From an uncultured delta proteobacterium (GTDB taxonomy: Bacteria > Desulfobacterota > Binatia > Binatales > Binataceae), in contig CAWIHG010000005.1 in NCBI GenBank assembly GCA_963835905.1, positions 1,396,018 to 1,460,017 on the forward strand: a stretch of 64,000 nucleotides of DNA, read 5' to 3'. Numbering within the stretch: position 1 is the first letter of the stretch; every line of letters starts with the position of its first letter. The notes beneath the pieces are model-generated. The model was given only the letters and a program-made list of their open reading frames with translations, was not told the origin of the DNA and ran no database searches. The translations under genes and the position numbers were made by a program. Shown here in pieces: positions 2,598 to 61,673 of the stretch.

Positions 2598-2663
2598 GCG
2601 CGGACGCCCGCTGGGTCCGCCAGCCCTGACTTTTCCCTTCGACACCTCGCAGGAGCAAATTCC

Positions 2664-2706
2664 GTCATCCTGAGCGTAGCGAGTCTGCGAGCGGAGTCGA
2701 AGGATC
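2664..2706. repeat. Short repeat-like element gtcatcctgagcg...cgaaggatc (reads VILS..KDL)
   Basis: Resembles a short interspersed repeat family that produces spurious small ORFs in many high-GC genomes. Only one copy is seen in this window, so this rests on recollection. Confidence 0.25.
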
Positions 2707-2831
2707 TCGCGCGGCAATTCTCCGCCGCGCCAAGTGCCGGCGCCGGATGCGCTGCGCATCTGGTGAGATCCTTCGCCTCACGGGCTCGGTTCAGGATGAC
2801 CTCAGTTTAGGCGAGGAATCGGGGAGCGTCG

Positions 2832-3254: not shown

Positions 3255-3935
3255 CTACGCGCCGCGAAACAGCGGCTTGCGCTTGTCCAGAAACGCGCGC
3301 ACGCCCTCGGCGCGATCGGCAGTCGTTTGTAGCAGGGCGTACAGATCTTCCTCAAGCCTGATGCCCTGGTCCAGAGCCATGTCGTAGCCCTTGAGCACGG
3401 CGTCCTTGACCAGCCGGGCCGCCAGCGGCCCGCGCGACAGGATCGCCTCTGAGACCTCGGCGCCGCGGCTGGCAAGCTCGCGCGCATCGCGTGCCAGGTA
3501 GGTCACCAGCCCGATTCGCATCGCCTCGGCGCCGTCGATTGCGCCGCCGCCCAGCAGCATCCGCATCGCATGGCCGATCCCGACCAGGCGCGGGAGCCGC
3601 TGGGTTGCGCCAAACCGCGGCATCGCGCCGCGCCGCAATCGGGTGAACGCAAAGCGCGCGCGCGCGGATGCGATCCTGATATCCGCGGCCATCGCCAGCT
3701 CCAATCCCTCATCGATCGCGTCGCCGTTGACGATCGCGAGCGTCGGCTTGGAGACGACAGCCAGTGTCTCGACCACGCGCGGATCGACGTCGGCGCTGAA
3801 GCCGCGGCAGAAGTCCGCGCCGGTGCCGGTAATCGCGAGCATCCGGATTTCGTCGTCGTCCTCGACGCGCTCGCACAGCTCGATCAATTCTACCACGGCG
3901 TGCGCGTCGAGCGGTCCGCCGCGCCCCGCCGGCAC
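3255..3935 (-). CDS. Enoyl-CoA hydratase/isomerase (crotonase) family protein, N-terminus unresolved
   Basis: Crotonase motifs ITGTGADFCRGFS and TLAIVNGDAIDEGLELAMAADIRIA. The only start found is GTG at 3935, which omits the first beta-strand. Homology continues upstream to the TGA at 4032-4034. Confidence 0.7.
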   Translation of the reverse strand: MPAGRGGPLDAHAVVELIELCERVEDDDEIRMLAITGTGADFCRGFSADVDPRVVETLAVVSKPTLAIVNGDAIDEGLELAMAADIRIASARARFAFTRLRRGAMPRFGATQRLPRLVGIGHAMRMLLGGGAIDGAEAMRIGLVTYLARDARELASRGAEVSEAILSRGPLAARLVKDAVLKGYDMALDQGIRLEEDLYALLQTTADRAEGVRAFLDKRKPLFRGA

Positions 3936-6392: not shown

Positions 6393-7945
6393 GCGGAATG
6401 CAGGTCGGCGCTGTCGCTCCACGCGATCGCGGGGCGTCCGCGCTCGTACACGACCTTGCCGTCGATAATCGTGATATCCACGGCCAGCGCGGCAAGCTCG
6501 GCCGGCTCCAGCCCGGACAGATCGCGCGGGAGCACGACCAGGTCCGCGAGCATCTCGGGTTCGATCGCGCCGGCCTCGATCCGCGCCAGCCGCGCGCCAT
6601 CGCGCGTGAACATCGCGAGCGCATCGGCGGGCGCAAGCTGCTCGTCGGGCGCGAGCGTGTCGCCGTCGATCGTCTCGCGCGAGATGGCGGCCGCGATCGC
6701 GGCGAGCGGGCGCGCCGGCGTGACCGGCGCATCGGTCGCTCCGGCCAGCTCGATTCCCGCCGCGCGCAGGCTGCGCGCGCGATACAGGTAGGGCAGCAGG
6801 CCGGGCTCGCGCGCGTACTTGGGACCCCGAAAATGTACGAAGCCCGGATTGGTCACCACCCACGCGCCCATCGCCGCCAGTCGCTCGAGGTGCTCGGGCG
6901 TGATGACGCCGCCGTGCTCGATTCTGCACACCGCCGGCGTGCCGCGCTCGCCAATCTGGCGCATCGCGAGTTCGATCGCGCCCAGCGCTTCATCGAGTTC
7001 CTCGACCTCGGTTGCGTGGAACGCGCAATCAAGCCCGCTGGAGAGCCCGATTCGCACCCGCCGCGCCAGCGTCGAGTCCCCCGCCGCGGCGCCGGGCATG
7101 AACTTGAGGCCCGCCAGCCGCACGCGGTCGCCCGCGAATTTGGCGGCGGCGCCCGCGGCGTCGAGGTGATGCGCGCCGATCATGACGCCGACCCGCTGGC
7201 AAATCGATCTGGCAGCCGATAGCCGCGCGAACAGCTCCACCTCCTCGGCGCCGTTGCGCACGGTCGCATCGGTGAAGGCGGTGACGCCCGCGGCGGCAAG
7301 CTCGCGGCTCATGATTCGCGCGCGCGATTCCGTCTCGGCCTTGGTGACGAGTGGAAGCCTGGCGGTGATCTCCTGCTCCATTGCGGCGACCAGCCCGCTG
7401 AGTTTGCCCGCGCCGTCGTGCTCGACGGTCGCGCCGGCGGGCGGGCGGAAGCCGGGTTCTTCAAACCCGCACAGTTTGATCGCGCGCGAGTTCAGCCACG
7501 AGGCGTGGAGCGTCTGATGGCGCAGGCGCAGCGGGTTCTTCGGGACCGCCTGGTCGAGTTCCTCGCGGGTCGGCCCGCGCCCCTCGGCCAGCAGCGCCTC
7601 GTCGCATCCGAACGCGCGCAGCCAGTTGCCGGGCGGGGTCTTGCCGGCGGCCAGACGGAGGTCGGCCAGCAGATCCGCTAGCGAGCGGCATCGCGAGACG
7701 TTCAGCCCGGTGGCCGCGGCGGCGCTTTCAAAAAAATGGAGATGCGAATCGATAAATCCCGGCGCGACGGTGCGGCCAGAGAGTTTGACCAGATGGGTCC
7801 GCGGTCCGACCAGCGCCTTGAGCTCGGTGAACGGGCCGTGCGCGATAATCCTGCCGCCGGTTATCGCGACCGAATCGCTTCCGGGATGACCGTGAACGGC
7901 TCCCTCGTGGAGAACGAGGTCGGCCTTGGCGGACGGGTTTGCCAC
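6389..7945 (-). CDS. Amidohydrolase-family metal-dependent hydrolase
   Basis: Motifs GFIDSHLHF and HATEVEE are typical of the amidohydrolase superfamily. Start assigned to GTG at 7945 (VANPSAKADLVLHEGAV); the longer listed ORF extension looks spurious. Confidence 0.7.
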   Translation of the reverse strand: MANPSAKADLVLHEGAVHGHPGSDSVAITGGRIIAHGPFTELKALVGPRTHLVKLSGRTVAPGFIDSHLHFFESAAAATGLNVSRCRSLADLLADLRLAAGKTPPGNWLRAFGCDEALLAEGRGPTREELDQAVPKNPLRLRHQTLHASWLNSRAIKLCGFEEPGFRPPAGATVEHDGAGKLSGLVAAMEQEITARLPLVTKAETESRARIMSRELAAAGVTAFTDATVRNGAEEVELFARLSAARSICQRVGVMIGAHHLDAAGAAAKFAGDRVRLAGLKFMPGAAAGDSTLARRVRIGLSSGLDCAFHATEVEELDEALGAIELAMRQIGERGTPAVCRIEHGGVITPEHLERLAAMGAWVVTNPGFVHFRGPKYAREPGLLPYLYRARSLRAAGIELAGATDAPVTPARPLAAIAAAISRETIDGDTLAPDEQLAPADALAMFTRDGARLARIEAGAIEPEMLADLVVLPRDLSGLEPAELAALAVDITIIDGKVVYERGRPAIAWSDSADLHSA

Positions 7946-12920: not shown

Positions 12921-13070
12921 CCGCGGCGCGCGCCAGCGCATCCGCCCGATAGCGGCGGCCCGCAAAACAGGTATCGACAATCACGCGATCGACGGCGCCG
13001 TCGGCGAGCCCCGCTCGCTCAGGGTGGCCGCTCGGACGCGCCTCGCGGTTGGCTCAGACACGCCTCGCGG

Positions 13071-14444
13071 TCACTTGGGCGCGACGGGTGAAAAATACGC
13101 GAGCGTGCCGTGCGCGAGGTTGCGCGCGTCTTTCCCGTCGATCGGCATCACCCACACTGCCGGGGGCGGCACCGTGCCGAGCGATTTGTCGGGCTCAACC
13201 AGCAGCCGAACGCCCGCGAAAACAATCGCGCTCGAATCGGGCGACCAGATAGTATGGGAGAGCGCGAACTGATCGAAGAAGCGATAGGAAATCGCTTCCT
13301 CGTCGGTGGAGAGAAAACGAGTGACGTGGGTGCTCTTGCCGGTCTTCAGATCGATCACCACCCACCAGTAGTAGGGCTTCTCCTTCGGCACCGCGATGTA
13401 GGCCAGGTAGCGCCCGTTGGGCGAAACGAAATATGCGTCAACCGGATCCTTGGTCAGCACACGCGAGGCTGCGGTGGCGATGTCCACCAGCCGGATTCCC
13501 GCGTACACCGGATCATGCGGCACCGTGGTGGTCGAGTAGACGATATGGGCCGAGTCGGGCAACCACTCGAAGCTGTTGTCACCCACCGGCAGGCTGACGA
13601 TCGAATGCGGATGGCTCCCGTCGGCGTCGGCAACCACCAGGTTGGCCTCCACGTTGTAGTTGGCGACGTAGGCGAGATGTTTTCCGTCGGGCGACCAGCT
13701 CGGGGTCATGAACGGTGAGCGTCCGTGCGACAGTATCTTGTCCACCTGCTGGTTGGTTTCCGTCAGGCTCATCAGGGAGACGCGCTCGCTGGTTTCGGGA
13801 TCGGAGCCGGCGGTGTGCACCACCAGGCGGTCTGCCGTGGCGTTCCAGTCGAAGTAAAGCGGCATCCCGGTCATCACGATTCGAATCGGCGCGGTCTTCT
13901 CCACCTGCGCGAGCATCAGGCTCAGCCCCTTGGGCTCGGCAAGCAGGAAGGAGAGATGCTGACTGTCGGCGAGCCATTGCAGGTAGATCACCCGCTCGTT
14001 GGCGCTCTGGAAGATTTGCCTGGCGCCACGACGATGGAGATCGTACACCCACAGGCCGAACTGGCGGCCTTTCTGGTCTTCGATAGCCGACGAATAGGCG
14101 AGTTTCGATCCGTCGGGCGAAAACGTGGGCCATCCGTAATGCAGGCGGCGCTTGGACTCGCTGCCACCACCCATCGCCACGGGAATGAACCCGGGGGCGC
14201 GGCGCACCTGGGTGCCTTCGGACGGGCAGGTCAGGCATTGCGGCTTGGCCGATACCTGCGGGAGGTAATAGATCTGGTCGTCGATGCCGACGTATCCGAT
14301 TGCTCCGGACGGTGTTGCCGCGAGCGCAAATCCGCCGCACAGGAAGATCAAGGCGATCGGGGCGGCGAGTTGAAGCGCCGCGCGAGCGAACCTCCCCCAA
14401 AGACGAGTCATCGTTGACCAGAATTGCGCCGCAGGTACCATCAA
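13071..14444 (-). CDS. TolB-like / WD40-like beta-propeller (PD40) periplasmic protein
   Basis: Signal peptide, then repeated PD40 motifs FSPDGSKLAY, WSPDGKHLAY, VSPNGRYLAY, WSPDSSAIVF. Confidence 0.75.
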   Translation of the reverse strand: MMVPAAQFWSTMTRLWGRFARAALQLAAPIALIFLCGGFALAATPSGAIGYVGIDDQIYYLPQVSAKPQCLTCPSEGTQVRRAPGFIPVAMGGGSESKRRLHYGWPTFSPDGSKLAYSSAIEDQKGRQFGLWVYDLHRRGARQIFQSANERVIYLQWLADSQHLSFLLAEPKGLSLMLAQVEKTAPIRIVMTGMPLYFDWNATADRLVVHTAGSDPETSERVSLMSLTETNQQVDKILSHGRSPFMTPSWSPDGKHLAYVANYNVEANLVVADADGSHPHSIVSLPVGDNSFEWLPDSAHIVYSTTTVPHDPVYAGIRLVDIATAASRVLTKDPVDAYFVSPNGRYLAYIAVPKEKPYYWWVVIDLKTGKSTHVTRFLSTDEEAISYRFFDQFALSHTIWSPDSSAIVFAGVRLLVEPDKSLGTVPPPAVWVMPIDGKDARNLAHGTLAYFSPVAPK

Positions 14445-15341: not shown

Positions 15342-16382
15342 CTAAGCTCTGAATTCAGGATTCTCAGGCAGCGGCGCGACGGCGGCGCCTGGAAACTGAA
15401 CCAGGTCGGTTCGCCACCAGACCAGAAAGGTCTCGAAGTCCAACGCGTCGACGGCCAAGCCGACCAAATTCTCCGCCAACACGTCAACGTCCCGATCATC
15501 CAAAGTCGCTCGCTTAGGGGAATTGGAACGGTAGAAGTAGAGTATGAACCCCGGATACAGTGCAGTATGCGGCGGCAAGTCGTTTATCTCCGCCTGGCTC
15601 CCGGAGGGTCCGCTCGGCTCCGTTCCCGGCATACCGTTTGAAATCACCAGATTTCTCTCAGAATCGTCGTCCGGTTGGCCCGGGATCCACAAAGCATACG
15701 CTGGGCTGACGACTTTGGACTGCCGGTCAAGCCGAAGGAACCTCCCAACGGCATCGTCGAGCAGGGTGTTGGGGTTCAGGGGATAACCAAGTCCATCTTC
15801 CGGACACGAATGCTCCCAGTCGTCTATCATCTCCGGCTGCGCGTCGTCCGGTAATATCGCGAAGAAGCTCCCCTTCAATATATCTATTCTCTCGCGCACC
15901 TTTTCGCGGACGAAGCTGCCCGTCAGTTGCTCTAATAGATACTCCGCCGCTTTGTCGGATTCGTTCACCGGATGCCAGACAAGCCTGGTCCTTTGAGGAT
16001 AATGGACAGTGCTGGTTACGTCATCGATAAGGTACCGCACTCCGACCTTTAGGCCGCTCAGGCGGCGCAGTATTTCTGGCGGTAGGTCGAGGTCCACATC
16101 GGGATCGTCAATCCAGCAGTCGATAGTGACTCGCTTGCCGATGGGAAGTTCTTCTACGCCGCTTTGTCGCGCTTCCAGAAAATCACACCAATACTCAATC
16201 TGGGCGCCGGGGCGCATCGTGGTCCTGAGTGAAGCATCGATGTGTCGTATCCACAATCCCGTAAAGAATTTGACGTTATCGGCACGCTCCATCCAGTCGC
16301 TGTCGACGCCCAGGACCTTCGAGACGTAGTCGGGGTCGACTCCTTCAACCCGCAACGAAACTCGGCTGTACTGCTGTTTCAT
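15342..16382 (-). CDS. Hypothetical protein (346 aa), possibly tandem DUF4279-like
   Basis: Lower GC (~55%). The N-terminus VSLRVEGVDPDYVSKVLGV resembles DUF4279-type proteins by recollection. Its start overlaps the end of rhs fragment 3. Confidence 0.55.
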   Translation of the reverse strand: MKQQYSRVSLRVEGVDPDYVSKVLGVDSDWMERADNVKFFTGLWIRHIDASLRTTMRPGAQIEYWCDFLEARQSGVEELPIGKRVTIDCWIDDPDVDLDLPPEILRRLSGLKVGVRYLIDDVTSTVHYPQRTRLVWHPVNESDKAAEYLLEQLTGSFVREKVRERIDILKGSFFAILPDDAQPEMIDDWEHSCPEDGLGYPLNPNTLLDDAVGRFLRLDRQSKVVSPAYALWIPGQPDDDSERNLVISNGMPGTEPSGPSGSQAEINDLPPHTALYPGFILYFYRSNSPKRATLDDRDVDVLAENLVGLAVDALDFETFLVWWRTDLVQFPGAAVAPLPENPEFRA

Positions 16383-16700
16383 GATCCTGCAAGGCCAGCG
16401 CCGCGACCATCAGCGTCGCGATACTGCCGCTCGAATTCACAAGAGCAATCGTACTGCCGAGCGCATCACGCAGCAACGCTACGCTTCCCGTCGAATCGGT
16501 GCTCACAAACCCGTCATCAAGCCACAACCCCGACAGAATGTCGATCTTTCCGCTGATCGATGACTGCACCCGCGCCGCGTTGATCCCGTCGTTCACGTAA
16601 TTGTCGATGATTGTCCCGGTGTTCTGCTGGACCCTTCTGCCCAGCGCGTCGTACCTTGTTTGTGCGGCGGACGAGAGTATCTGAGCGGGACGTGCTCTGA
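16345..16700 (-). pseudogene. Orphan rhs fragment 3 (YD-repeat / core region only, no start, truncated)
   Basis: Translation ...TRYDALGRRVQQNTGTIIDNYVNDGINAARVQSSISGKIDILSGLWLDDGFVSTDSTGSVALLRDALGSTIALVNSSGSIATL then runs out of frame; the expected YEPFG...NPY...RARYY...DPxGL tail is missing. Confidence 0.55.
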
Positions 16701-16873
16701 CCGCAGAACCGCAGATCTGCCGGAGATACGCTCTCGATGTGGACCTATCTCTGGGTGTAGGTCAGGGGTGCGGACCGTTTCCACGCGCCGCCTTCTAACC
16801 GCGGATCGCTCCGCCAATCGCGTAGGCATGAGCGAACTGAGGCGTTAAAGATTCCGCGTCTGACTGCTCCTAC

Positions 16874-17377
16874 TCAAGCGGCCCAGCTCAACACGAGAAT
16901 TATCAACAGCGCCGCTACCACGGCCCACGCGAAGGCACTGGCGAGAGCGTCAAACTCCAGCGGGCCATGAAACGTTCCCATGGTGTTCATAAAACTGACC
17001 TCAACTGGCCCAAAGTTGAGGGTGTCACCACCCCTGATTCGCGTACTCCGCTCAATCCGCCGTCCGTTGATAAAGGTTCCGCGCGTCGAACCCAGATCCT
17101 CGACAAAATATCGATCGAGAAACCGCCGCGTAATTTTGGCATGATGCGCGGCGACTTGAGGATCCGCGATCAGCACGCCGCAGTCACTCGCACTGCCAAT
17201 CAGCGTCTCACGCCAGCCGAGGGTGTGTTCGTGGCGGCCTGAACCGTCGATCCTCAGCAAGTACGTCGGTTTTTCCTCGGGTGGGCGAGGACCATCATAG
17301 CCAGGGATGGGCCTCAAACCGAACCGACCGGGAGGACCGGTGGCTTGCTGAGACCGATTATGGCGATATTTACCCAT
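16874..17377 (-). CDS. FHA-domain protein with C-terminal transmembrane anchor
   Basis: FHA signature GSASDCGVLIADPQVAAHHAKI...VEDLGSTRGTFINGRRIE...GDTLNFGPV, and C-terminal helix FAWAVVAALLIILVLSWAA. Confidence 0.65.
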   Translation of the reverse strand: MGKYRHNRSQQATGPPGRFGLRPIPGYDGPRPPEEKPTYLLRIDGSGRHEHTLGWRETLIGSASDCGVLIADPQVAAHHAKITRRFLDRYFVEDLGSTRGTFINGRRIERSTRIRGGDTLNFGPVEVSFMNTMGTFHGPLEFDALASAFAWAVVAALLIILVLSWAA

Positions 17378-17525
17378 ATAATATAAAGAACGCGCGATCG
17401 CTGACGTTTGCTATTGCTAATGTGAGGTTCTTCCGGAGAACTCTCCCCATATCGCCTTGCGCGCAAAGAGGAACATGCGCTTGTCTTCGCTTTCTCCGAG
17501 CACAGACTTCCGGAAAGTCGACTGC

Positions 17526-18077
17526 TCACGCAGCCGCGCCGGATTTGCCGCTGACTCCGGACTTGTGGGCGCTATGTCTCACTTTGAACGGTACAATGAT
17601 TCCAATTGCACAAATAGCTCCGACTGCGATCAGGGGCCAACTCTGCAGTGCTAGCCCTTCCACAATGCCGACAGTCGCAAGCGCGGCGGATCCAATTCCA
17701 ATCGGAACTGCCCGACGTTCCTTCGGTACAAGGCGCAGCCAGAGAGCGACAATGAAGGCGGTCGTCGAAAGCGGAACCACTGCTAAGTGATCCTCGGTTA
17801 GAAGAAATACCGCCAGCGCCAGTCCTGATAACGAGAACAGGAAGCCGATCGCCTCGATGACTAAACGAAACGTCAGCGAGGAAGAGGTGCGCATCTGCCA
17901 TCCAAGCGAAAGGCCCACAACCCCGCCTAGTGCGCTTGAACCGGCAAGTATCGGCAATTCGGCGGCCCCGGCGACACTCCAGAAGCAATAACCGATCACT
18001 GCTCCGACCAGCACGCCTACGGAAACGAGTCCAGCCAAAAACGCAATATCACGGTTCTCCTCGTTCATCGTGGGCAC
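17526..18077 (-). CDS. Multi-TM membrane protein, candidate immunity protein for the upstream rhs-tip toxin
   Basis: 183 aa with about five predicted TM helices. Lies immediately downstream of the orphan toxin domain and has low GC. Confidence 0.5.
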   Translation of the reverse strand: MPTMNEENRDIAFLAGLVSVGVLVGAVIGYCFWSVAGAAELPILAGSSALGGVVGLSLGWQMRTSSSLTFRLVIEAIGFLFSLSGLALAVFLLTEDHLAVVPLSTTAFIVALWLRLVPKERRAVPIGIGSAALATVGIVEGLALQSWPLIAVGAICAIGIIVPFKVRHSAHKSGVSGKSGAAA

Positions 18078-18134
18078 CTCCTCAGCTGAGCACGCTTACT
18101 TCCGCGGCGAGTGTCGCTTGATCTCCGAACGGAG

Positions 18135-19105
18135 TTAGGGGCTGGGAGCCGCCGGTCCTGCTATTCCGGGGGCACCTGCAGCACCTTGAAAGAGCATTGA
18201 ATCTATAAGCCCGTCTTCAACGATTGCGACGGTGGCGCCCACGGCCATTCCGAGGAGCACACCTATCGCGATACCGGGCAGGCCCCCGATCTCACCAATG
18301 GCGGCGCCGATTTCGGCAAACTCCTCGATGTCTAGAGGTATCAGTGCGGCGCGGGCGAAGAGCTGCCCAGTCGAGGGCTGAATGCCAGAAAGGCTGCCGG
18401 GTGCGCCGACGCTCGGTCCCGACACAGCGGCCATCTCGCCTGCCCCGATGCCCGCGTCTGCCTCGGCAACGCCAAGCGGGGAGTTGGCTCCGGATTGCGC
18501 GGCTTCGTATGCAGCGATCTGGCCCGCAGTATCATTCTCAGATGAATCGCCTCCTGAACCGCCGCCTCCAGTAGCCGAGTTGTTTCCGCCTGCACCTCCA
18601 GCGCCGGGGCCCGAGTGGACCCACTCCCAACCGTTAAAGGTTTTCACGGCAGCCCACGCGTCGTCGGCCGATCCTCCGCCGCGACCCGTGGGGTCTGTGA
18701 GCTTCGTCGGAGCGTCCCCGACATACGCGAAGAAATTGGGCTGGCCGCCGCCGAGTCCCAGCGGGTCGGACGAGATGAAGCGGCTGCGAGGCGCGCCCGA
18801 GCAGCCGTCCTGAGCCGCCCGGCGAAGGACCCCCACAGCGGATTGTAATAGCGCGCGCGCATGAAGTAGAGCCCGCTTTGATCCAACTCGCGCCCCGCAA
18901 ACGCGTAAGGATTCGTCGTCGATGCGCCGCTGGTCGAGGTCTTGCCGAACGGCTCATACGTGTCTTGGGTGGCCAGACTTCCGCCCGAGTTCACGAGCCC
19001 GATCGTACTGCCGAGCGCGTCGCGCAGCAACGCCACGCTTCCCGTGGAATCGGTGCTCGCAATTTCATCATGCGGTGACAGAACTGAGGAGCCTTGGTCG
19101 AGCAT
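18135..19105 (-). pseudogene. Orphan rhs C-terminal tip 2 with Gly-rich toxin domain (frameshifted)
   Basis: Frame 1 gives STDSTGSVALLRDALGSTIGLVNSGGSLATQDTYEPFGKTSTSGASTTNPYAFAGRELDQSGLYFMRARYYNPLWGSF. A frame switch then gives RFISSDPLGLGGGQPNFFAYVGDAPTKLTDPTGR plus a ~190-aa Gly-rich domain ending in a glycine-zipper helix GLPGIAIGVLLGMAVGATVAIV. Confidence 0.6.
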
Positions 19106-19152
19106 TCGGTGGCCGCCAGGCGTTGCGGCTATCGCGGGGAGGGACGATACGA

Positions 19153-19920
19153 TTATCTCAAGAAATAAGGCGCTATGATAAACAGGGCACCATCAAGCAG
19201 CGAGTGTGCGATCACGCAGGTTCCAACGTTCCGTCGCCAGACGTACAAAAGGACCAAAACCAGTTGTGGCAACAGGAACGTGTAAAGCACCTTCAAGCCC
19301 CAATCGCTGTGAGCAATCATCGAGCCCGCTAACGCCGCACAAGCGCCCCAGAAAATGCTTCCTGACCAGGTTTCGAATCGTTCTATCACATAGCCACGGC
19401 CGCATTCTTCGACCATCGCATCCCAAATCACCGCCACCGCTCGAGCCCATACGGGGAGGGCGAGGGCACGTTCAATTACGGATGTAAGGGCGGGATTGGC
19501 ATCTTGGATGCCGAATACCCAGAAAAGAATGTAGGCCTCGGCGTAAGCCAGAAGAAAACAAGAAAAAACCCCTGCGAGCGCGGGCGGAATTTCAGTAAGA
19601 GTTGGCAGCCGCCAGCCCGCCGACGCCAAAGGCTGGCGCTCCCAGCGGGTGATTATTGCCGCGAGGAAGACTATTGGCGAAAGAGCGTAAACCGCAGCTG
19701 CACCGCGCCCCAATTCGCTGGAGAACCGAACGTGTCCCAATACCTCGGTCACCTGCGGAATATCCGGAAGCAATACGAGGCCATAAGCCGACAGGACGCC
19801 CGCAAATAAGGCAGCTGGATTGACTCGTCGACGCAGGGCCGGCTCATCTGCGCATGTTTTAGTCCCTATTTTCAGAGCGTTTGGTTGTTCTCCTGTCGCA
19901 TTGCTACTGGTCACATGCAA
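19153..19920 (-). CDS. CPBP family intramembrane metalloprotease (Abi/CAAX-protease-like), candidate immunity protein
   Basis: Motif 1 EECGRGYVIERF (EExxxR), motif 2 FWGACAALAGSMIAHS (FxxxH), motif 3 HSLLDGA. Start overlaps the stop of the upstream toxin ORF by 10 nt. Confidence 0.7.
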   Translation of the reverse strand: MHVTSSNATGEQPNALKIGTKTCADEPALRRRVNPAALFAGVLSAYGLVLLPDIPQVTEVLGHVRFSSELGRGAAAVYALSPIVFLAAIITRWERQPLASAGWRLPTLTEIPPALAGVFSCFLLAYAEAYILFWVFGIQDANPALTSVIERALALPVWARAVAVIWDAMVEECGRGYVIERFETWSGSIFWGACAALAGSMIAHSDWGLKVLYTFLLPQLVLVLLYVWRRNVGTCVIAHSLLDGALFIIAPYFLR

Positions 19921-20900
19921 GCTCCGGACAGACTCAGGCCGTTGGGTGCTTGCATCATAGGGGCATCCGGCCGCTCAAGGCTCGCTGCGTTCAGAATGGC
20001 CCGCGCCGCAGAACCGAGTGTCGAGCAACCGGAATAGAATGAGGCCTGCGTCGTGGTGTTCGGCACGAAATCCAGATTCGAGTAACTCGGCAAATTCATC
20101 ACGGGCGGGAGATGAATGCGCGGATCTCCAAATATATATATCGCGAGTTTTCCGAGTAACGTAAAGAATACTCCTCCAAAACCCAGAATATACTTGGGCT
20201 TCGGCTTCGGCGTTGGCGTTGGTTTCGGCTTCTGCTTTTGCTTTGGCGCTGGCGGAGGAGGATCGGGTGGTGTCGGAGGCGGGCCGGGGCTGCCGCCCCA
20301 CACTTCGCCCGTTGGATCGACGAAGTTCATCGGGCTGTTGCCGACATACGCGAAGAAATTCACCTGGCCGCCGCCGAGACCGAGCGGATCTTGCGAGATA
20401 AAGCGGCTGAGCAAGGGATTGTAGTACCTCGCGCGCATGAAATAGAGCCCGGATGCGTCCAGCTCGCGCCCCGCGAACGCATACGGATTCGTCGTCGAAG
20501 ACCCGCTGCGCGAGGTCTTCCCGAACGGCTCGTATCCGTAACTCGTCGCGATGCTGCCGCCCGAGTTCACGAACCCAATCGTACTGCCGAGCGCGTCGCG
20601 CAGCAACGCCACCGCTCCCGCTGGAATCCGTGCTCGCAAACCAGTCATCGAGCCACAGCCCCGACAGAATGTCGATATTCCCGCTCATCGAGGACTGCAC
20701 CTGGACGGCGTTAAGCCCGTCGTAAACGTAGTTGTCTATCGTTGTCCCGGTATTCTGATGGACCCGCCGCCCCATCGCGTCGGACCGCTCGAATGGCAGC
20801 GTGTCAACCAGAAGCCGATGCGGTGTGTTTTCGCGCACGTGTACTCCGTAGTGAGAAGTGCTATAGTAATTCGGGATGGATATGAGGTTGCACAGGCGAA
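19911..20900 (-). pseudogene. Orphan rhs C-terminal tip 1: RHS core end + Pro/Lys-rich linker + small C-terminal toxin (one +1 frameshift)
   Basis: ...YVYDGLNAVQVQSSMSGNIDILSGLWLDDWFASTDSSGS, then a frameshift (one inserted g), then AVALLRDALGSTIGFVNSGGSIATSYGYEPFGKTSRSGSSTTNPYAFAGRELDASGLYFMRARYYNPLLSRFISQDPLGLGGGQVNFFAYVGNSPMNFVDPTGE. Followed by PPPTPPDPPPPAPKQKQKPKPTPTPKPKPK and a ~110-aa low-GC toxin with a hydrophobic helix YILGFGGVFFTLLGKLAIYIFG. Confidence 0.6.
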
Positions 20901-21274
20901 TATCCGTAATCAGCAGAAGACTGGAGAGTTATACATCGCCGGGAAGAGAATATAGTCACTCCGGGAGAGGATCGAACGAACCCACGTGGAAAATAGAAAA
21001 CGTCAAGAGTTCTCGCGTGTTCTCTCTTGATCATTGGCTCCCGCTGAGTATTCCGAAGCCGCCAAACCGCCCCCGATGAGCACTGCGAACCGGCGGATGA
21101 GCCGATATACGGGCCTGCGAACTCACCCAGCTATGGCGCAATCCGGCGCGGGCCTGCCTCGGCGGAAGCGCGGGAACCGGGCTGCGCGGATAACGCCGGC
21201 CCGGCGCCGCGATCGCACCGCTGTCGCGAAGTATATCGGACGTGATATGGCCTGAACCTACAGGAGATATCGCG

Positions 21275-56511: not shown

Positions 56512-56718
56512 TTGAAAAGTCGACCTAGTGTGGTCGGAGCGCAGGAAGTGTTCCTTTCCCTTGACTACGCCAGGCGCAAGATCGAAGCTTGGCGGAAGCA
56601 CTATCACGAGAACCGTCCTCACACATCGCTGGGCTACGTTCCACCCCGGGGATTCACCCACAGGCCGCGAGGAACGCCGGCCCATGAACCCGGACTACTC
56701 ACCCCCAAGTCGGACTAG
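56512..56718 (+). mobile_element. Transposase C-terminal remnant (rve integrase-core tail)
   Basis: FLSLDYARRKIEAWRKHYHENRPHTSLGYVPP matches the conserved transposase/integrase tail (...AR..IE.WR..YN..RPH.SLGY.TP). No intact upstream portion. Confidence 0.5.
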
Positions 56719-56735: not shown

Positions 56736-58187
56736 GTGAATAGCAGACCATCGACGCGCGAGTGGACATTCTTCGGGTTGGTCGCTGCGTACTCAGCGAT
56801 CTACCTGGCGATTTATCCAGCGTCCTATTCGATAATCGACGAAAGCTGCATTATCGCCCTCGGACAGGCGCTGCGCCACGGCAGCATTTTTCTCGACTCG
56901 CCGATCTGGGGAATGCCACTCGACGGCCGCGTCGTCTCGAAGTTTTCAGCGTTTCACGCCGCGCTGCTGATGCCAGCGCTCAGCACGTCGTGGCGCACTA
57001 TGTTTCTCGTCTCTGCGGCGTTCTTCGTGGCGGGCGCGTTCGTGCTGCGCGCGATGCTCCGGCGCGCCGGCCTCGGGAGCGGATGGTGCGTGCTGTATTT
57101 CATGCTGGCCGGCGCGCTCTACTATTCGCAGACCGTGATCGCGGCGGTCCCGGCCGCCGTGACCGGTCTCTTCGGGGTGTCGCTATGCCTGCGCGATCCG
57201 CCGCGGCCGCTGCTCGCAGGACTGGCGTTGGGTGCAGCCACGCTGCTTCATCCGTGGATGGGGCCGTTTGCGGTGGTGTTCACGATTGTGTGGAGCCTCG
57301 AGCAGGGCATCCCGCAAGGCATCAAATCGGCCGGCGGGCTGCTCCTGGGCGCGACGCCGTCGGTTGCAGCGCTGATGGCCTACAATCACGCGACGACGGG
57401 CAGCGCGTTTCGCGACGTTTATACGATGCTGGGGCATCAATACGAGTTCAATGGGCAGCATCTTATATCGTTTTTCGTGTTCTATTTTTTGTCGTTTGGC
57501 GTGTTTCCACTCGCCGGATGGAGCGCTTTTTCGCGGCGATGGTCAGGGACCTGGGCGATTCCTGCGGTGTGCGCCGTAACCATCGTGCTGGGGTCACTCT
57601 ATTACTATCGCGACGGTTTGAAGGTCGGTTCGGCGACCGTCGGCAACGCGGCCCTAATCGCGGGCCTAATCCCAGGTCAGCGCTTTCTCATTCCGGCTTC
57701 GATGCTCGCCTGCTTACCCGCGGCGAGATTTCTGAACGAGCGAGTTTCGCGGCTCGCCCCGATTCTCGTGCAGCGCGGAAAAATCGCGGCGCTCGCCGTT
57801 TTCGTCATTTCATTTTCGCTGATCAGCATGGCGCATCAGTCGTATTTGACCGCGCATGCCAAGGTGCAGCAGACTCTGGCCCTGAGCCTTCCGCATGACG
57901 CCAAGATCGCGATCGCGGGCAGAGTGAGAAAGGAATTTGCGCCCGCTTCATTTGCTTTCGATGGAGTCTACCGGCTCGACATCGATGAACCCGTGCCGCG
58001 CGATCAGTACTTTGCGGTGCTGAGGCTTCCCGGCGGCGCTACGCCCGCGGCGTGGGCCGCCGGGCACACGGTCACCCGCGTGCCGATTCGTTCGTGGGTA
58101 TGGAATCGCGATCTGCTGATCGGATCGCCGGCGCACTCGTCAGACGGAAAATCAAATGCAGTCAGTTCAGATGCTCGTGGTGGGTAA
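56736..58187 (+). CDS. Polytopic membrane protein, hypothetical (possibly GT-C-like glycosyltransferase)
   Basis: ~11 predicted TM helices, 483 aa. No confident family assignment. Confidence 0.5.
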   Translation: MNSRPSTREWTFFGLVAAYSAIYLAIYPASYSIIDESCIIALGQALRHGSIFLDSPIWGMPLDGRVVSKFSAFHAALLMPALSTSWRTMFLVSAAFFVAGAFVLRAMLRRAGLGSGWCVLYFMLAGALYYSQTVIAAVPAAVTGLFGVSLCLRDPPRPLLAGLALGAATLLHPWMGPFAVVFTIVWSLEQGIPQGIKSAGGLLLGATPSVAALMAYNHATTGSAFRDVYTMLGHQYEFNGQHLISFFVFYFLSFGVFPLAGWSAFSRRWSGTWAIPAVCAVTIVLGSLYYYRDGLKVGSATVGNAALIAGLIPGQRFLIPASMLACLPAARFLNERVSRLAPILVQRGKIAALAVFVISFSLISMAHQSYLTAHAKVQQTLALSLPHDAKIAIAGRVRKEFAPASFAFDGVYRLDIDEPVPRDQYFAVLRLPGGATPAAWAAGHTVTRVPIRSWVWNRDLLIGSPAHSSDGKSNAVSSDARGG

Positions 58188-58672
58188 TGTGCTGCAGTAT
58201 TTCGTCCCGTGTACATATTGATAAAATGATGTCGCCCGCGGTCATTTCTCAAAGTTTCGCCGAGAGACGCTTAGTCTTACACTGACCTTTAGTGTTGTGT
58301 CCGAAAGGCAACTCATATCACCCTGAATCCGGCGTGAAAAATACTCATTCAGACCCTGCGGTAGTCTAAGGTGCTCCGGAATGGTCTTGCTCTGCCGTCT
58401 CAAGACCAGGAGAAGAGTCAGGTCAACGCGCTTGAGCGCACCCAGCCGGTGCTGCCAATGGGGATGGGCTAAATCGAAGGCGCTCGCCGCCATCGCTAAC
58501 TCAGGAAGGCCGCTCGGCTCGACCTTCTATTGAGGTTCTACATCGGACCGACCAGATGAGCGAGGTGATCTCGGCGCCGGAACGCTCTCGGGCTTGAACG
58601 CGTCTCCGGCGAGCCGCTCGATGGGGATTCCCGAGGTACGGTCTTGTTAGACAACAGCGTTAAGGGCTGCAC

Positions 58673-59530
58673 CTACCCCGTTTCAGTAGACAGAGTTGGG
58701 CTTGTGCGGAATTCCGCTGGATGGCTCCTTTGGTAGTTGATAGGCGAGAGATAGTCGAGGGCCGAATGGCGGCGGTGAGGTTTGTACCAACCTTCGATAA
58801 AATCGAACACCGCCATCCGCGCCTGGGCCTGGGTTCTGAAGTTTTGTCGGTTGAGCAGCTCGGATTCGAGAGTGGCGAAGAAGCTCTCGCACATGGCGTT
58901 GTCAAAACAGTCGCCCACCGAACCCATCGAGGGCCGCCCCCGGCCTGTTCGCAACGCTTCCGAAGGCGACCGACGTATATTGGCTGCCTTGGTCGGAATG
59001 ATGGATCACGCCGGCGGGACGGCGCTGTACCAGCGCCATGTCAAGGTCTTTGAGTACCAGCTCGGTACGCAGATAAGTCTTCATCGCCCAACCCACTATC
59101 CGGCGGCTGAAGACGTCGAGCACCACGGCCAGATAGAGAAGGCCGGCCCAGGTTGGAATGTAGGTGATGTCGGCCACCACAAACGGTTGGGCGCCGCGGC
59201 GGTGAAGTTGCGTTCGACCAGGTCGGGCGCCGGCCGGGCGGCGCGATCACGCACCGTAGTGATGATCCAGTTGCACCACCCCCGGATCACGGTCCGGGGG
59301 CCGGCTGCGCGCATCAATCGCGCCACGCGTTTGATGCCCGCCCTAATGCCTTGCTCCGCGAGGTCGACAGGGATGCGCGGCGCGCCATAGGTCCGGCGCG
59401 AGCGACGATGGATCTCGGCGATCCGCGCGCTCAACTCGGCGTCCGCGCGAGCTCGTGCCGAGGGCGGACGCTTGAGCCGCGCGTAATAGCCACCGGGGGA
59501 GACCGCCCAGTACGCGGCACCTGGTGGCAA
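58673..59530 (-). mobile_element. IS3-family transposase (orfB) remnant, fragmented over three frames
   Basis: ORFs 59096..59530, 58902..59180 and 58673..58954 together give ...RRTYGAPRIPVDLAEQGIRAGIKRVARLMRAAG.../...VADITYIPTWAGLLYLAVVLDVFSRRIVGWAM...IHHSDQGSQYTSVAF.../...DNAMCESFFATLESELLNRQNF...ARMAVFDFIEGWYKPHRRHSALDYLSP. That is a DDE transposase with frameshifts. No orfA was found. Confidence 0.7.
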
Positions 59531-59919
59531 TCCGATGTATGGCCCGGTTAGCCCCTACGAATGCGAACGCCGCGATGGGTCCGTTTATATTTTTTCCGGT
59601 GCGCGCGCAGGCACCCTCTCTCCGCCGCTCCGACCCTCGCTCCGGCACCGCCGCTGCGCGATTGATCGTGACCTGTCGCAAGCGGGGGGCAAGGCAAGCG
59701 CACGCTTCCCCCGCGCTCTGTGCGAGCGGTTTTCCGGCGCTCGCCGATTGCGGAAGCGGGATAAGCGCGCCCCTGTGATGAGCGGGCATCAAGGCAACAG
59801 CACCTTGTGGCGGACCGAGCGGGCGTTAGCGATTTCGGGCTGAGGGCAAACGGCGCTGCGAGCGGCGCCATCGGACTGACTATTAGTCTAAAGACTCGCC
59901 GCTGCTTGTCAAGCCCGTT

Positions 59920-61267
59920 TCAGGCGGTGGCGTCATTTTCGCGGCCGGTGAACTGATATGGATTGGTGCTCGATGCGCGCGACGCCGTCGTGTTCCCGAA
60001 CGGTTCGTAGGTGTATGAAGTCTGAATTGCTCCTGCGGAATCCGCGAGCGCCAGCGTGCTTCCGAGCGTATCGGTCAGGAAGTCGCGACTGCCGGCGGAG
60101 TCGGTCCTCTGAAAGTACTCGTCGATGTTCAGCCCGGTGAGTAGATTTGCCGACGGGCTCCCGGACTGGATTTCCTGCACTGGATTCAGGCCGTCATACA
60201 GGAACTGGGTCGTGGTTCCTGCAATAGTTTTGCTGACCCGCCGGCCGAGCGCGTCGTACCCGAAGCTGGCCGTCACCGCACCGCTGATCCCAACCAAATG
60301 ATTGCGCGCATCCCAGCTATAGGTGTTGCTGCCATCGTTGGTCAGGTTTCCATTCGCATCATAGGTCATCACGGTCCCGTTGAACGAAGTCATCTCGTTG
60401 TCCGCGTTGAACGTGTTCCCCGTCACCGCTTGCGGCAGATTCGTCTCCGCCATGCTGCCCGTCTTCTCGATGACGCGCCCGTCGGCATCATAGCTGTATT
60501 CCAGGTCGCCGATCTGGTTGCCCGCCAGCGTCCAGGTCATCCCGCTCACCCGCGAGTCGGCGTTCCTTTGGCGCAGAGGGCCCCTCTCGCTGCCCCTTCG
60601 CTTTCGCTCAGGGCTGCGGCTCCAATCGGGCGCCGAAGCGGCGGCTCAGGACAGGCTCCACTATATGTCACCACTATCCCATTGGGCAGCGTGAGCTGCG
60701 TCCTTCGATTGGCGTTGTCATATTGGAACGCAACCGAGCCGGTTCCCTGCGTAACTCCTGTCAATCGGTTCGCATTGTCCCACGTGTACGAGACCTGCGT
60801 CTGCCCCGCCACCGTCAGCGTCGCCCGCCGGTTCGCGTTGTCGTAGCTGTAGCTCACCTCGCCCAGCGGGGTCTGCTCGTCGGTCAAACGATCGAGACCG
60901 TCATAGGTCCGCGCGATCGTCCCGGCGATCGAGTCCGTCGCTCCGGTGAGGCGATTTCCGCCGTCCCACGTATAGCTGATTGAGCTCTGATATCCGCTGC
61001 CGTTGTAGCCATAGCCCGCGAAGGTGCGGCGGTTGAGGCCATCGTAGCTGTATTTCGTGATGTTTCCATCGCGATCGGTGTGCTGGGTCAGGTTTCCGTT
61101 ACCGTCATAGGAATAGTTCTCGACTGCATTCAGCGCGTCTGTGCGCGAACTCCGGCGGTCCATGTTGTCGTACGTGTACCTGGTCTGGTTCGCGTTGGCG
61201 TCGGTGACTGAAGTGAGGTCGCCGCCGGTATAGCTGAAGTGGACCGTAGCGCCCGCCGCGTTGTTGA
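59920..61267 (-). pseudogene. rhs-family YD-repeat protein, internal fragment (no start, C-terminus truncated, internal frame break)
   Basis: YD repeats: YSYDGNGNLTQHTDRDGNITKYSYDGLNRRT, YTWDNANRLTGV, FQYDNANRRTQLTLPNGIVVTY. A frame break near 60550-60662 is followed by EYSYDADGRVIEKTG...YDANGNLTNDG...YDALGRRVSKT...YEPFGNTTASRASSTNPYQFTGRENDATA, then a stop exactly where RHS cores continue (GLYY.RARYY). There is an upstream in-frame stop at 61268-61270 and no Met. Confidence 0.65.
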
Positions 61268-61322
61268 GTTAGGCGACCTGACCCTCGGAATCTTGGTCTA
61301 AGATTGCAAAGCGCTAGCGGTT

Positions 61323-61340
61323 ACACGTTGTTAACAACGT
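61323..61340. promoter_or_regulatory. Perfect 18-bp palindrome CACGTTGTTAACAACGTG
   Basis: Seen in sequence in the 480-bp non-coding stretch between the rhs fragment and the tRNA-like element. Candidate binding site for a dimeric protein (repressor or recombinase). Confidence 0.4.
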
Positions 61341-61625
61341 GCCATTGATGTGGAAGCGCCTCACGAGGCCTTGTGGTGTTGGACGAAACCCTCCGCAGCC
61401 GATAGTCCCGCCCGGCCAAGAATCTTGCACGGAATCTCGATGAGACTATGCGCGGGGTTCGCCTGAGGGTGGGGACTTTTGTGGTGACCCTCGATCGATT
61501 TCCGTATGATTCGGTATCGCTCGTGAGCTCGACGCGAGAGTTTGAAGACCCTTGGCGCCGTTGGGTTTGATGCATATCGAGGGTCACGGGGTCACGGAAT
61601 GATACCTGCGAAAACCGCCCTGCTA

Positions 61626-61673
61626 TGCTGGAAGTGCGTGTGGTCGCCGGTTCAAATCCGGCCGCCCCGACCA
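61626..61673 (+). repeat. tRNA 3'-end-like element (T-arm + acceptor 3' strand + CCA), copy 1
   Basis: gccgg-TTCAAAT-ccggc T-arm, followed by cgccccg-a-CCA. The upstream sequence does not fold into D or anticodon arms and no complementary 5' acceptor strand is present, so this is not a complete tRNA. Confidence 0.5.

Follow-up and report, generated by a model that had tools for sequence, protein, structure and literature searches.

What interrupts the Rhs gene remnant of an uncultured delta proteobacterium of the Binataceae, and to what kind of element does the interruption belong? The remnant lies on the minus strand of a 64,000-nt stretch of contig CAWIHG010000005.1 (hereafter the window), where YD repeats occupy two reading frames across 61267-59920, separated by a short segment over which the frame is lost. 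The initial annotation of this DNA described the segment as a small inserted element or indel scar. We hold with good confidence that the locus is a dead Rhs cassette into which a member of a hairpin-repeat family, termed E below, has been inserted at the Tyr codon of one YD motif. The wider interest of the locus is the repeat family that the fragment exposes, rather than the ordinary decay of the fragment itself. Throughout, homologous proteins carry P-numbers and DNA loci L-numbers; L004 is the syntenic relative that encodes the protein P0001. The features on which the argument rests are as follows.

59920 to 61267, minus strand: the Rhs/YD-repeat fragment overall, an orphan-like cassette and pseudogene, recognized from translations, Pfam RHS_repeat and homologues.
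60660 to 61267, minus strand: its upstream reading frame, LNNAAGATVHFSY ... LPNGIVVTYS, with 82.8% DNA identity to L004 4841-5410.
60565 to 60659, minus strand: an inserted cluster of hairpin units resembling repetitive extragenic palindromes (REPs), 95 nt in place of one Tyr codon (TAT), recognized from homologues, the E profile and alignments.
59920 to 60564, minus strand: the downstream reading frame, NADSRVSGMTW ... NPYQFTGRENDATA and a stop, with 76.9% DNA identity to L004 5422-6055.

A decayed Rhs cassette and its 95-nt insert

Both reading frames belong to the Rhs family. The N-terminal part matches Pfam RHS_repeat (PF05593) with 113 bits over five repeat stretches and the C-terminal part with 42 bits over three, the latter also matching TIGR01643 with 39.8 bits. 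A search with the two halves joined returned 2309 relatives at an E-value of 1e-20 or below, those with names being mostly from Candidatus Binataceae, and the best of them was P0001 (708 aa, 82% identity). Many of the homologues are start-variable open reading frames (ORFs) of 500-700 aa labelled "RHS repeat-associated"; one, in L008, follows an Rhs gene of greater length (>1,000 aa, cut off by the locus end) and a putative immunity gene.

The fragment is internal and start-less, as the initial annotation had stated. Upstream it is bounded by an in-frame TAA at 61268-61270, a start codon is absent, and P0001 residues 1-155 have no counterpart there when residues 156-555 of that protein are placed on the window by tblastn. 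Downstream, the frame terminates as ...NPYQFTGRENDATA-TGA, with the TGA at 59920-59922, and Rhs homology ceases at 59921-59925, the DNA comparison with L004 ending at 59925. A full Rhs protein has an RHS-associated core domain (TIGR03696) that ends in a DPxGL cleavage motif; in P0001 this domain spans residues 528-604, and the last residues of the fragment, ...GRENDATA, correspond to P0001 residue 555, at about position 28 of the 76 positions of the domain. The earlier placing of the break at 59920 within the conserved core was thus correct, and alignment to longer Rhs proteins, which had also been proposed, defines the missing portions as P0001 residues 1-155 and everything past residue 555. 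TIGR03696 itself gave no match on the fragment at an E-value of 0.01 or below, the aligned homologues all extend past its end with GLYYxRARYY...QDPI, and nothing Rhs-like lies beyond 59920, so that a C-terminal toxin and immunity gene are absent. The stretch 59920-61267 is a non-functional relic without activity of its own, an ordinary pseudogene; start-less, frameshifted, truncated and situated beside a dead IS3 element, it does not merit annotation as a toxin gene.

The description that fits the fragment best is that of an orphan-type Rhs cassette, in which a YD-repeat shell and core end have no start of their own. Orphan rhs-CT/immunity modules are reportedly found downstream of main rhs genes in Enterobacteria. 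The start-less piece described here resembles these modules in sharing its repeat and core region with a main gene, but differs from them in lacking the core end, toxin and immunity gene, and in lying approximately 40 kb from the syntenic Rhs locus. Because the core end, toxin and immunity gene have been lost, the fragment cannot donate a new tip.

The segment between the two frames is a derived insertion, since all 30 aligned homologues are continuous at this point, reading …LPNGIVVAYTYDNDSHV… / ...LPNGIVVAYTYDNDSHVTGMTW..., and L004 has 25 nt of DNA where the window has 117 nt, a net gain of 92 nt that shifts the frame. The closest homologues, P0039 (87%) and P0113 (84%), likewise show no interruption, and the protein of the window misses exactly one residue at the insert, the Tyr of a YD motif. 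A Logan contig from a separate assembly (L003, run ERR11594399) matches window 60532-61663 at 100%, insert included. The loss of frame first reported at 60550-60662 is accordingly real, with narrower bounds of 95 nt at 60565-60659, and the two palindromes noted within it are present: cgccg-aag-cggcg (plus strand) at 60631-60643 and the near-palindrome gagggcccctc at 60577-60587.

The clue to the family of the insert was the peptide DGACPERSRRK, which P0001 has where its relatives have TYE. This peptide led to E, a 27-nt unit GGAGCCTGYCCTGAGCGNAGYCGAAGG (GGAGCNTGYCCYGAGCGNAGNCGARGG as read from Rhs-gene DNA). The insert opens with GACPE... in the same frame as the E-unit peptide of P0001 and is composed of the following parts.

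60644 to 60659, minus strand: left arm of unit 1, GGAGCCTGTCCTGAGC, equal to E positions 1-16 (nhmmer and alignment).
60631 to 60643, minus strand: a small hairpin, CGCCG-CTT-CGGCG, read directly and present in minimum free energy structures.
60593 to 60623, minus strand: unit 2, GGAGCCGCAGCCCTGAGCGAAAGCGAAGGGG, with 24 of the 27 E positions and a 2-nt insertion (E profile and alignment).
60565 to 60592, minus strand: a degenerate unit 3 and the right end, with the near-palindrome GAGAGGGGCCCTCT, ending CCAAAGG where E has CCGAAGG (alignments; the weakest of the unit assignments).

When the E profile was run over the 64-kb window with nhmmer, the top match was 60659-60644 (E-value 7.7e-4), the left arm of unit 1, and the third-best was 60614-60597, in unit 2. 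The arm of unit 1 begins exactly at the insertion boundary, and that boundary is identical in L004, L006, L007, L020 and L021. Relatives of the other parts occur elsewhere: the right 55 nt (unit 2 and the right end) are homologous to the intergenic stretch L004 7342-7400 (score 46, 0 of 500 shuffles), and the left part agrees at 17 of 18 nt with window 18786-18835 (1 of 500 shuffles). Membership of the E family is thus established for the insert, which, as judged from these alignments, is a cluster of about three degenerate units. The frame was lost because the insert is such a 95-nt cluster and not a single in-frame unit.

The E repeat family and its footprint

A pattern that fixes 20 positions of E found at least 120 stretches in metagenomes, in 119 distinct contexts, so that the unit combines the two properties of a short imperfect palindrome and of many copies. 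Among the stretches listed, E is preceded by C in 68% of contexts and followed by G in 83% or by A in 15%. In the listed copies, positions 12 and 25 vary together as paired bases would (T-A 112, C-G 6, T-G 3, C-A 2), which supports a hairpin of the form CCY-GA-G[loop]C-GA-RGG. Most copies are intergenic, and tandem, nested or inverted arrangements also occur; in L101, L106, L033 and L079, head-to-tail arrays have a period of 25 nt, the closing GG of one unit opening the next. Copies are modestly enriched at the tips of host hairpins (flanks folding to -12 kcal/mol or lower in 41% versus 29%, p = 0.017). Rfam searches of 20 E-bearing loci returned tRNAs and Acido-Lenti-1 alone, elsewhere in those loci, and a full-text literature search for the repeat sequence and its peptides returned primer coincidences alone. 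Rfam lacks this unit, which abounds in soil and peat metagenomes and resides in frame in housekeeping genes; the unit would also explain odd peptides that recur in predicted proteins, namely GACPERSRR, EPALSEAEG, PSASLRAGS, LRLRSGQAP and FDFAQDRL.

E would be able to colonize coding sequence, its length being a multiple of three and its consensus, read directly, being open in five of the six frames. In-frame copies lie in a metallo-β-lactamase (MBL)-fold hydrolase, in which the Pfam Lactamase_B domain spans the insert, and in Der, in which the insert falls between the two GTPase domains (Pfam); further in-frame copies lie in DnaE2-like, UvrD-like, MetH-like and formate-dehydrogenase-like ORFs assigned by eye. 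Rhs genes are also hosts. Among 120 Rhs homologues, GACPERSR(R/G) stands in place of a YD/YE Tyr in P0001, P0009, P0053 and P0025, at different repeats, and the ORFs of P0009, P0025 and P0053 are intact. The copy in the window is out of frame and in a pseudogene. P0001 (L004 4390-6516) is itself chimeric, its residues 1-101 forming an Rhs core-domain end (...RARYYNPLLSRFISQDPLG) that is joined directly to YD repeats. The in-frame E lies at residue 42, and the protein continues with a second core end and a toxin, such that TIGR03696 matches it twice.

The MBL-fold hydrolase provides a filled and an empty site at the DNA level. L082 reads ATC, 27 nt, GGC where L130 reads ATC-ACT-GGC, with nearly identical flanks, and the corresponding protein forms are ...IVI-GACPERSRR-GLTG... 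and ...IAI-T-GLTG.... Lengths in the family follow suit, 68 of 120 matches being 218 aa and 14 of 120 being 210 aa, with others besides. In this acidobacterial family (P0241-P0360), E was gained once and retained, the repeat-derived loop evolving as protein, and the nonapeptide has drifted across lineages (GACPERSRR, GASPERSQR, GVSPEQGRT, GANPEKGQT and others).

Two regularities emerge that selection alone does not explain. The first is the loss of exactly 3 nt at every insertion for which it can be inferred, namely the hydrolase, the Rhs sites, the 95-nt cluster and a 50-nt copy at window 18786-18835; selection does not account for this, because a gain of 27 nt without loss would also keep the frame. 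The second is the single orientation at YD motifs. At seven independent sites (L004; L006, which is the same site as L008; L007; two in L020; L021; and the window), the Tyr codon of Y[D/E] has given way to E, whose orientation and frame are the same every time. The base after E is A at five of the seven, which turns D into N or E into K. With five open frames available, the agreement of six further sites with the first would be expected by chance with a probability of about 6e-5. Both regularities could point to how REP-like elements enter DNA, a process that is still poorly understood.

The published elements that E most resembles are the REP, BIME and REPIN elements (Di Nocera et al. 2013, PMC3733652; Bertels & Rainey 2011, PMC3116915). 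These are imperfect palindromes of 20-40 nt with many copies each, mostly intergenic and often just past stop codons, occurring singly, as inverted pairs or in clusters, and at times in frame inside genes, DnaE2 and UvrD genes among them (PMC3733652); each of these traits is shared by E. REP families carry at one terminus a tetranucleotide tag, GTAG or CGTC (PMC3733652), which the E consensus lacks, being preceded by C and followed by G, although GTAG does appear as one of four variants of the E loop (15 of 123 copies). E differs also in its 27-nt unit open in five of six frames, and the exact replacement of three bases was not found described in the portions of PMC3733652 and PMC3116915 consulted. 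A second likeness, one of behaviour, is to the Rickettsia palindromic elements (Ogata et al. 2000, as cited in PMC3733652), which also reside in frame in genes and whose inserted peptide drifts with the host protein, as in the MBL hydrolase family; in contrast to E, they are longer than 27 nt and belong to Rickettsia, and the copy in the window differs from them in being out of frame in a pseudogene. On balance, E is most likely a REP-like element, its intragenic copies included.

The more specific proposal, that E and its clusters are a REP-like mobile element that leaves a three-base swap as its footprint and has a hotspot at C-TAY-G(A) in YD motifs, is put forward tentatively. Several results weigh against it or against the account of the locus given above. 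No mobilizing enzyme for E turned up and no RAYT gene is linked to it, in analyses that included no search aimed at Y1 transposases. Outside the insert, the profile found no E unit in the 64-kb window that is both complete and canonical, which means that the family is sparse in this genome. The YD contexts of L020 and L021 were recognized by eye, a Pfam RHS match being absent; unit 3 of the insert is weakly E-like; an exact match to the central 22-mer of the insert turned up once among 185,579 representative genomes; and at the putative junction of the insertion sequence (IS) with Rhs neither orfA nor a left inverted repeat was found. Finally, the insert folds no better than its shuffles (z = -1.2 and -0.7 as RNA, -0.08 as DNA), and it exceeds chance through its homology to the repeat family and not through hairpin strength, the DNA being G+C-rich. 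If the proposal is true, Rhs toxin genes would be recurrent targets by way of the hotspot in their YD motifs, and the footprint should betray the cleavage geometry of the mobilizing enzyme.

Under the proposed history, the hairpin-repeat insertion that the orphan-type Rhs cassette carries at the Tyr codon of one YD motif was probably at first a single in-frame unit (GACPERSRR, as in other Rhs genes), which preceded the 95-nt cluster. The cassette has separately lost its 3' part, with the toxin, the immunity gene and the final two thirds of the core domain, possibly through the action of the IS. The repeat itself would most likely propagate as a REP-like element that is not autonomous and on which an enzyme acts in trans, and each insertion would cost exactly three target bases without producing a duplication.

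Competing explanations of the insert

Of the competing explanations, the one that fares best is that E at YD Tyr codons descends from a single old insertion, copied by repeat duplication or gene conversion without any preference for site; we consider it rather unlikely. Rhs genes recombine readily, P0001 being chimeric, and the sites of L006/L008 and L007 and the first site of L020 share the right flank D/N-(A/G)-(N/D)-G-N-(L/M). The flanks of L004 (QDD before and KPFGK after), of the window (TYS and NADSRV) and of L021 are, however, unrelated to the others, and the same event of 27 nt in and 3 nt out took place in the unrelated hydrolase gene. Moreover, E is canonical at all 20 fixed positions while the surrounding Rhs DNA is approximately 70-85% identical, which argues for recent independent arrivals or strong constraint.

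A unique indel scar, or filler from error-prone repair, without kinship to a repeat family is a very improbable origin for the 95 nt, and this explanation is already largely refuted. It could draw on the unexceptional folding, on the rarity of the central 22-mer and on BLASTN, which at a word size of 7 found no significant second copy in the window, the short relatives having surfaced by motif search and pairwise alignment. Against this, the first 16 nt are identical to E and share both boundary and codon with six other YD sites, and the similarities to L004 7342-7400 and to window 18786-18835 are significant relative to shuffles. Of the two options offered by the initial annotation, the small inserted element thus stands, as a repetitive one with related copies, and the scar does not. 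Nor is the segment unique (uniqueness was what the annotation had set beforehand as refuting its view), as related copies occur in the window, in L004 and in metagenomes. The single genome match of the 22-mer is the hairpin CCTGAGCGAAAGCGAAGGGGCA at L005 1132-1153 (minus strand), in a 5' untranslated region of an otherwise unrelated metagenome-assembled genome of Dehalococcoidia, where a tRNA cluster lies on one side of it and a small gene's ribosome-binding site on the other; it matches in the hairpin alone and may be due to chance (expected number approximately 0.07-0.15) or be a free-standing hairpin of the same kind.

Still less probable is a classical miniature inverted-repeat transposable element, that is, an IS shortened by deletion and mobilized by a DDE transposase, for example that of the neighbouring IS3 relic, approximately 1 kb away. 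The likeness to such elements suggested by the initial annotation fails on the ends, GGAGCCTGTC... and ...GCGCCAAAGG, which are not inverted repeats and have no similarity to IS3 ends, and on the flanks, which have no direct repeat and have lost three target bases.

The least credible explanation is a functional recoding or RNA element (a bypass, programmed frameshift, or small ribozyme or intron) that restores the Rhs frame, since despite the GGA with which the insert starts and finishes, its UUCG- and GAAA-type loops and a CUGA...GAA motif that is faintly like a hammerhead core, Rfam returned nothing for it at gathering score (and a GA-cis fragment alone, with an E-value of 1.4, when values up to 10 were admitted), the z-scores for folding lie close to zero, a hop from GGA to GGA in the short copy of L004 lands out of frame when followed by hand, and a gene without start, core end or toxin leaves nothing to rescue. 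The hammerhead-like and translational-bypass forms of this idea were weighed by hand and dropped.

The IS3 relic, the syntenic island and related repeats

Downstream of the Rhs fragment lie the remains of an insertion sequence and a spacer.

58668 to 59578, minus strand: an IS3-family relic comprising the last orfA codons, OrfB with three frameshifts (near 59500, 59180 and 58950) and the right end (NF033516 and the DNA of L129).
58668 to 58700, minus strand: the right inverted repeat of the IS (...CCCAACTCTGTCTACTGAAACGGGGTAGGTGCA), ending at 58668, aligned by eye to ...GGGGTAGGTCCA of L129, which ends at 3372.
59579 to 59919, no strand: an unassigned spacer of 340 bp that separates the end of Rhs from the confirmed part of the IS, with no detectable homology.

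The frameshifted IS3 orfB relic that the initial annotation reported near the Rhs end is present, approximately 345 bp downstream, and the profile search that could have refuted it places it in the IS3 family. Pieces of OrfB at 58673-59530 need three frame corrections; they match Pfam rve, rve_2/rve_3 and HTH_21, and with the three frames joined, NF033516 aligns to them along positions 103-368 of its 369 and scores 301 bits, its cut-off being 160. The reconstructed OrfB is 83% identical, over its full length, to intact OrfBs of 287-288 aa, and its DDE signature stretches WVADITYI, HHSDQGSQYTS and DNAMCESFF were recognized by eye. The right end finishes ...CA, as in the family. Unlike intact members, the relic has three frameshifts in OrfB, no recognizable orfA or left end, and no target duplication: the intact 1258-bp IS in L129 (2115-3372) is flanked by the 4-bp duplication TTCC, whereas the copy in the window is flanked by GAAA and GCCC.

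The further claim that the IS cut the Rhs gene is plausible and goes beyond the evidence. DNA similarity to the intact IS covers window 59578-58668 alone (82.6% against L129 2463-3372), and the 340 bp that separate it from the Rhs end show no trace of orfA: three frames gave no Pfam match at an E-value of 10 or below, tblastn with the OrfA of L129 found its last 8 codons alone (PSRRSHS*), within the confirmed IS homology, and alignment to the orfA DNA of L129 revealed no similarity (semi-global, z = 0.9). The length of the spacer would suit the left inverted repeat and orfA of a full IS (1250 versus 1258 bp). Of the terminal repeats sought near 58650 and 59900, the right end was found at 58668, while the best candidate for the left, CGGGCTTGAC versus TGGACTTGAC at 59917-59908, matches at 8 of 10 positions and is not significant. 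With no target duplication, no Rhs sequence beyond the IS, and no orfA or left repeat in the 340 bp, a cut by the IS is not established. A second transposase relic at 56512-56718 (plus strand), 68 aa that match the last 38 positions of the IS3 profile (E-value 1e-7), lies just before a 483-aa membrane-protein gene at 56736-58187, which is thus flanked by two IS relics.

The origin of the cassette may be sought at the other end of the window, where 6.8-25.3 kb are syntenic with L004 at 82-86% identity. L004 has its Rhs gene between an abhydrolase gene and a PD40 gene, at the position where the window has orphan Rhs tips. The fragment at 60 kb and the body of the L004 Rhs gene are 83% and 77% identical in the two frames, similar to the flanking genes, which makes descent from the syntenic locus, followed by relocation, reasonable; on these comparisons, relocation of the fragment from the 15-21 kb locus is plausible. 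The orphan tips are not its missing half, because their Rhs coordinates overlap and they belong to a different subfamily, marked by NPYAFAGRELD... as opposed to NPYQFTGREND... in the fragment. The suggestion that an ancestral rhs locus had been dismantled by IS activity and rearrangement therefore holds insofar as the island corresponds to the Rhs locus of L004, while nothing shows that an IS moved the fragment.

The island itself (15342-21000, minus strand) is laid out as an orphan toxin/immunity array: at least three partial Rhs core ends (20644-20380, 19062-18836 and 16511-16413) differ in their tails and are separated by small membrane-protein ORFs. It lacks the main Rhs gene seen at the same place in L004. 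Two further members of the repeat family lie in or near it.

18786 to 18835, plus strand: a second family member of 50 nt, which stands in an orphan Rhs tip in place of a single Leu codon flanked by YYNPL and SRFISSDP.
About 13000 to 13069, minus strand: a third related copy, directly past the stop codon of the PD40-repeat gene and at a break in synteny with L004.

The 50-nt copy accounts for the frameshift between the ORFs 18644-19105 and 18135-18836, and the third copy agrees with it at 27 of 30 nt (0 of 500 shuffles). At the synteny break (12933-13080), the window lacks a radical-SAM gene that is present in L004 (9481-10329). In L004, a two-hairpin repeat module at 7342-7478 adjoins 61 nt left over from an Rhs core end (ERKLDATGLYFMRARYYHPL), and repeats of the E family thereby mark the edge of another Rhs remnant there. 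Two copies of a sister repeat type in inverted orientation, GTCATCCTGAGCG...GAAGGATCTC ... GAGATCCTTCG...TCAGGATGAC, resemble a REPIN doublet and occupy window 2660-2800 (plus strand), where they give the second-best match of the E profile in the window.

ARAGORN found no tmRNA or tRNA in the window, and Rfam found nothing at gathering score over its whole length. Below that score, a tmRNA-like fragment at 61554-61673 (plus strand), approximately 290 bp upstream of the Rhs fragment, matches RF00023 with 22.6 bits (gathering score 47; E-value 2.9e-7), its T-arm, 3' acceptor strand and ACCA alone being convincing. It resembles the duplicated 3' end that borders an island after integration into ssrA, and the Logan contigs break at this same position, 61554-61673.

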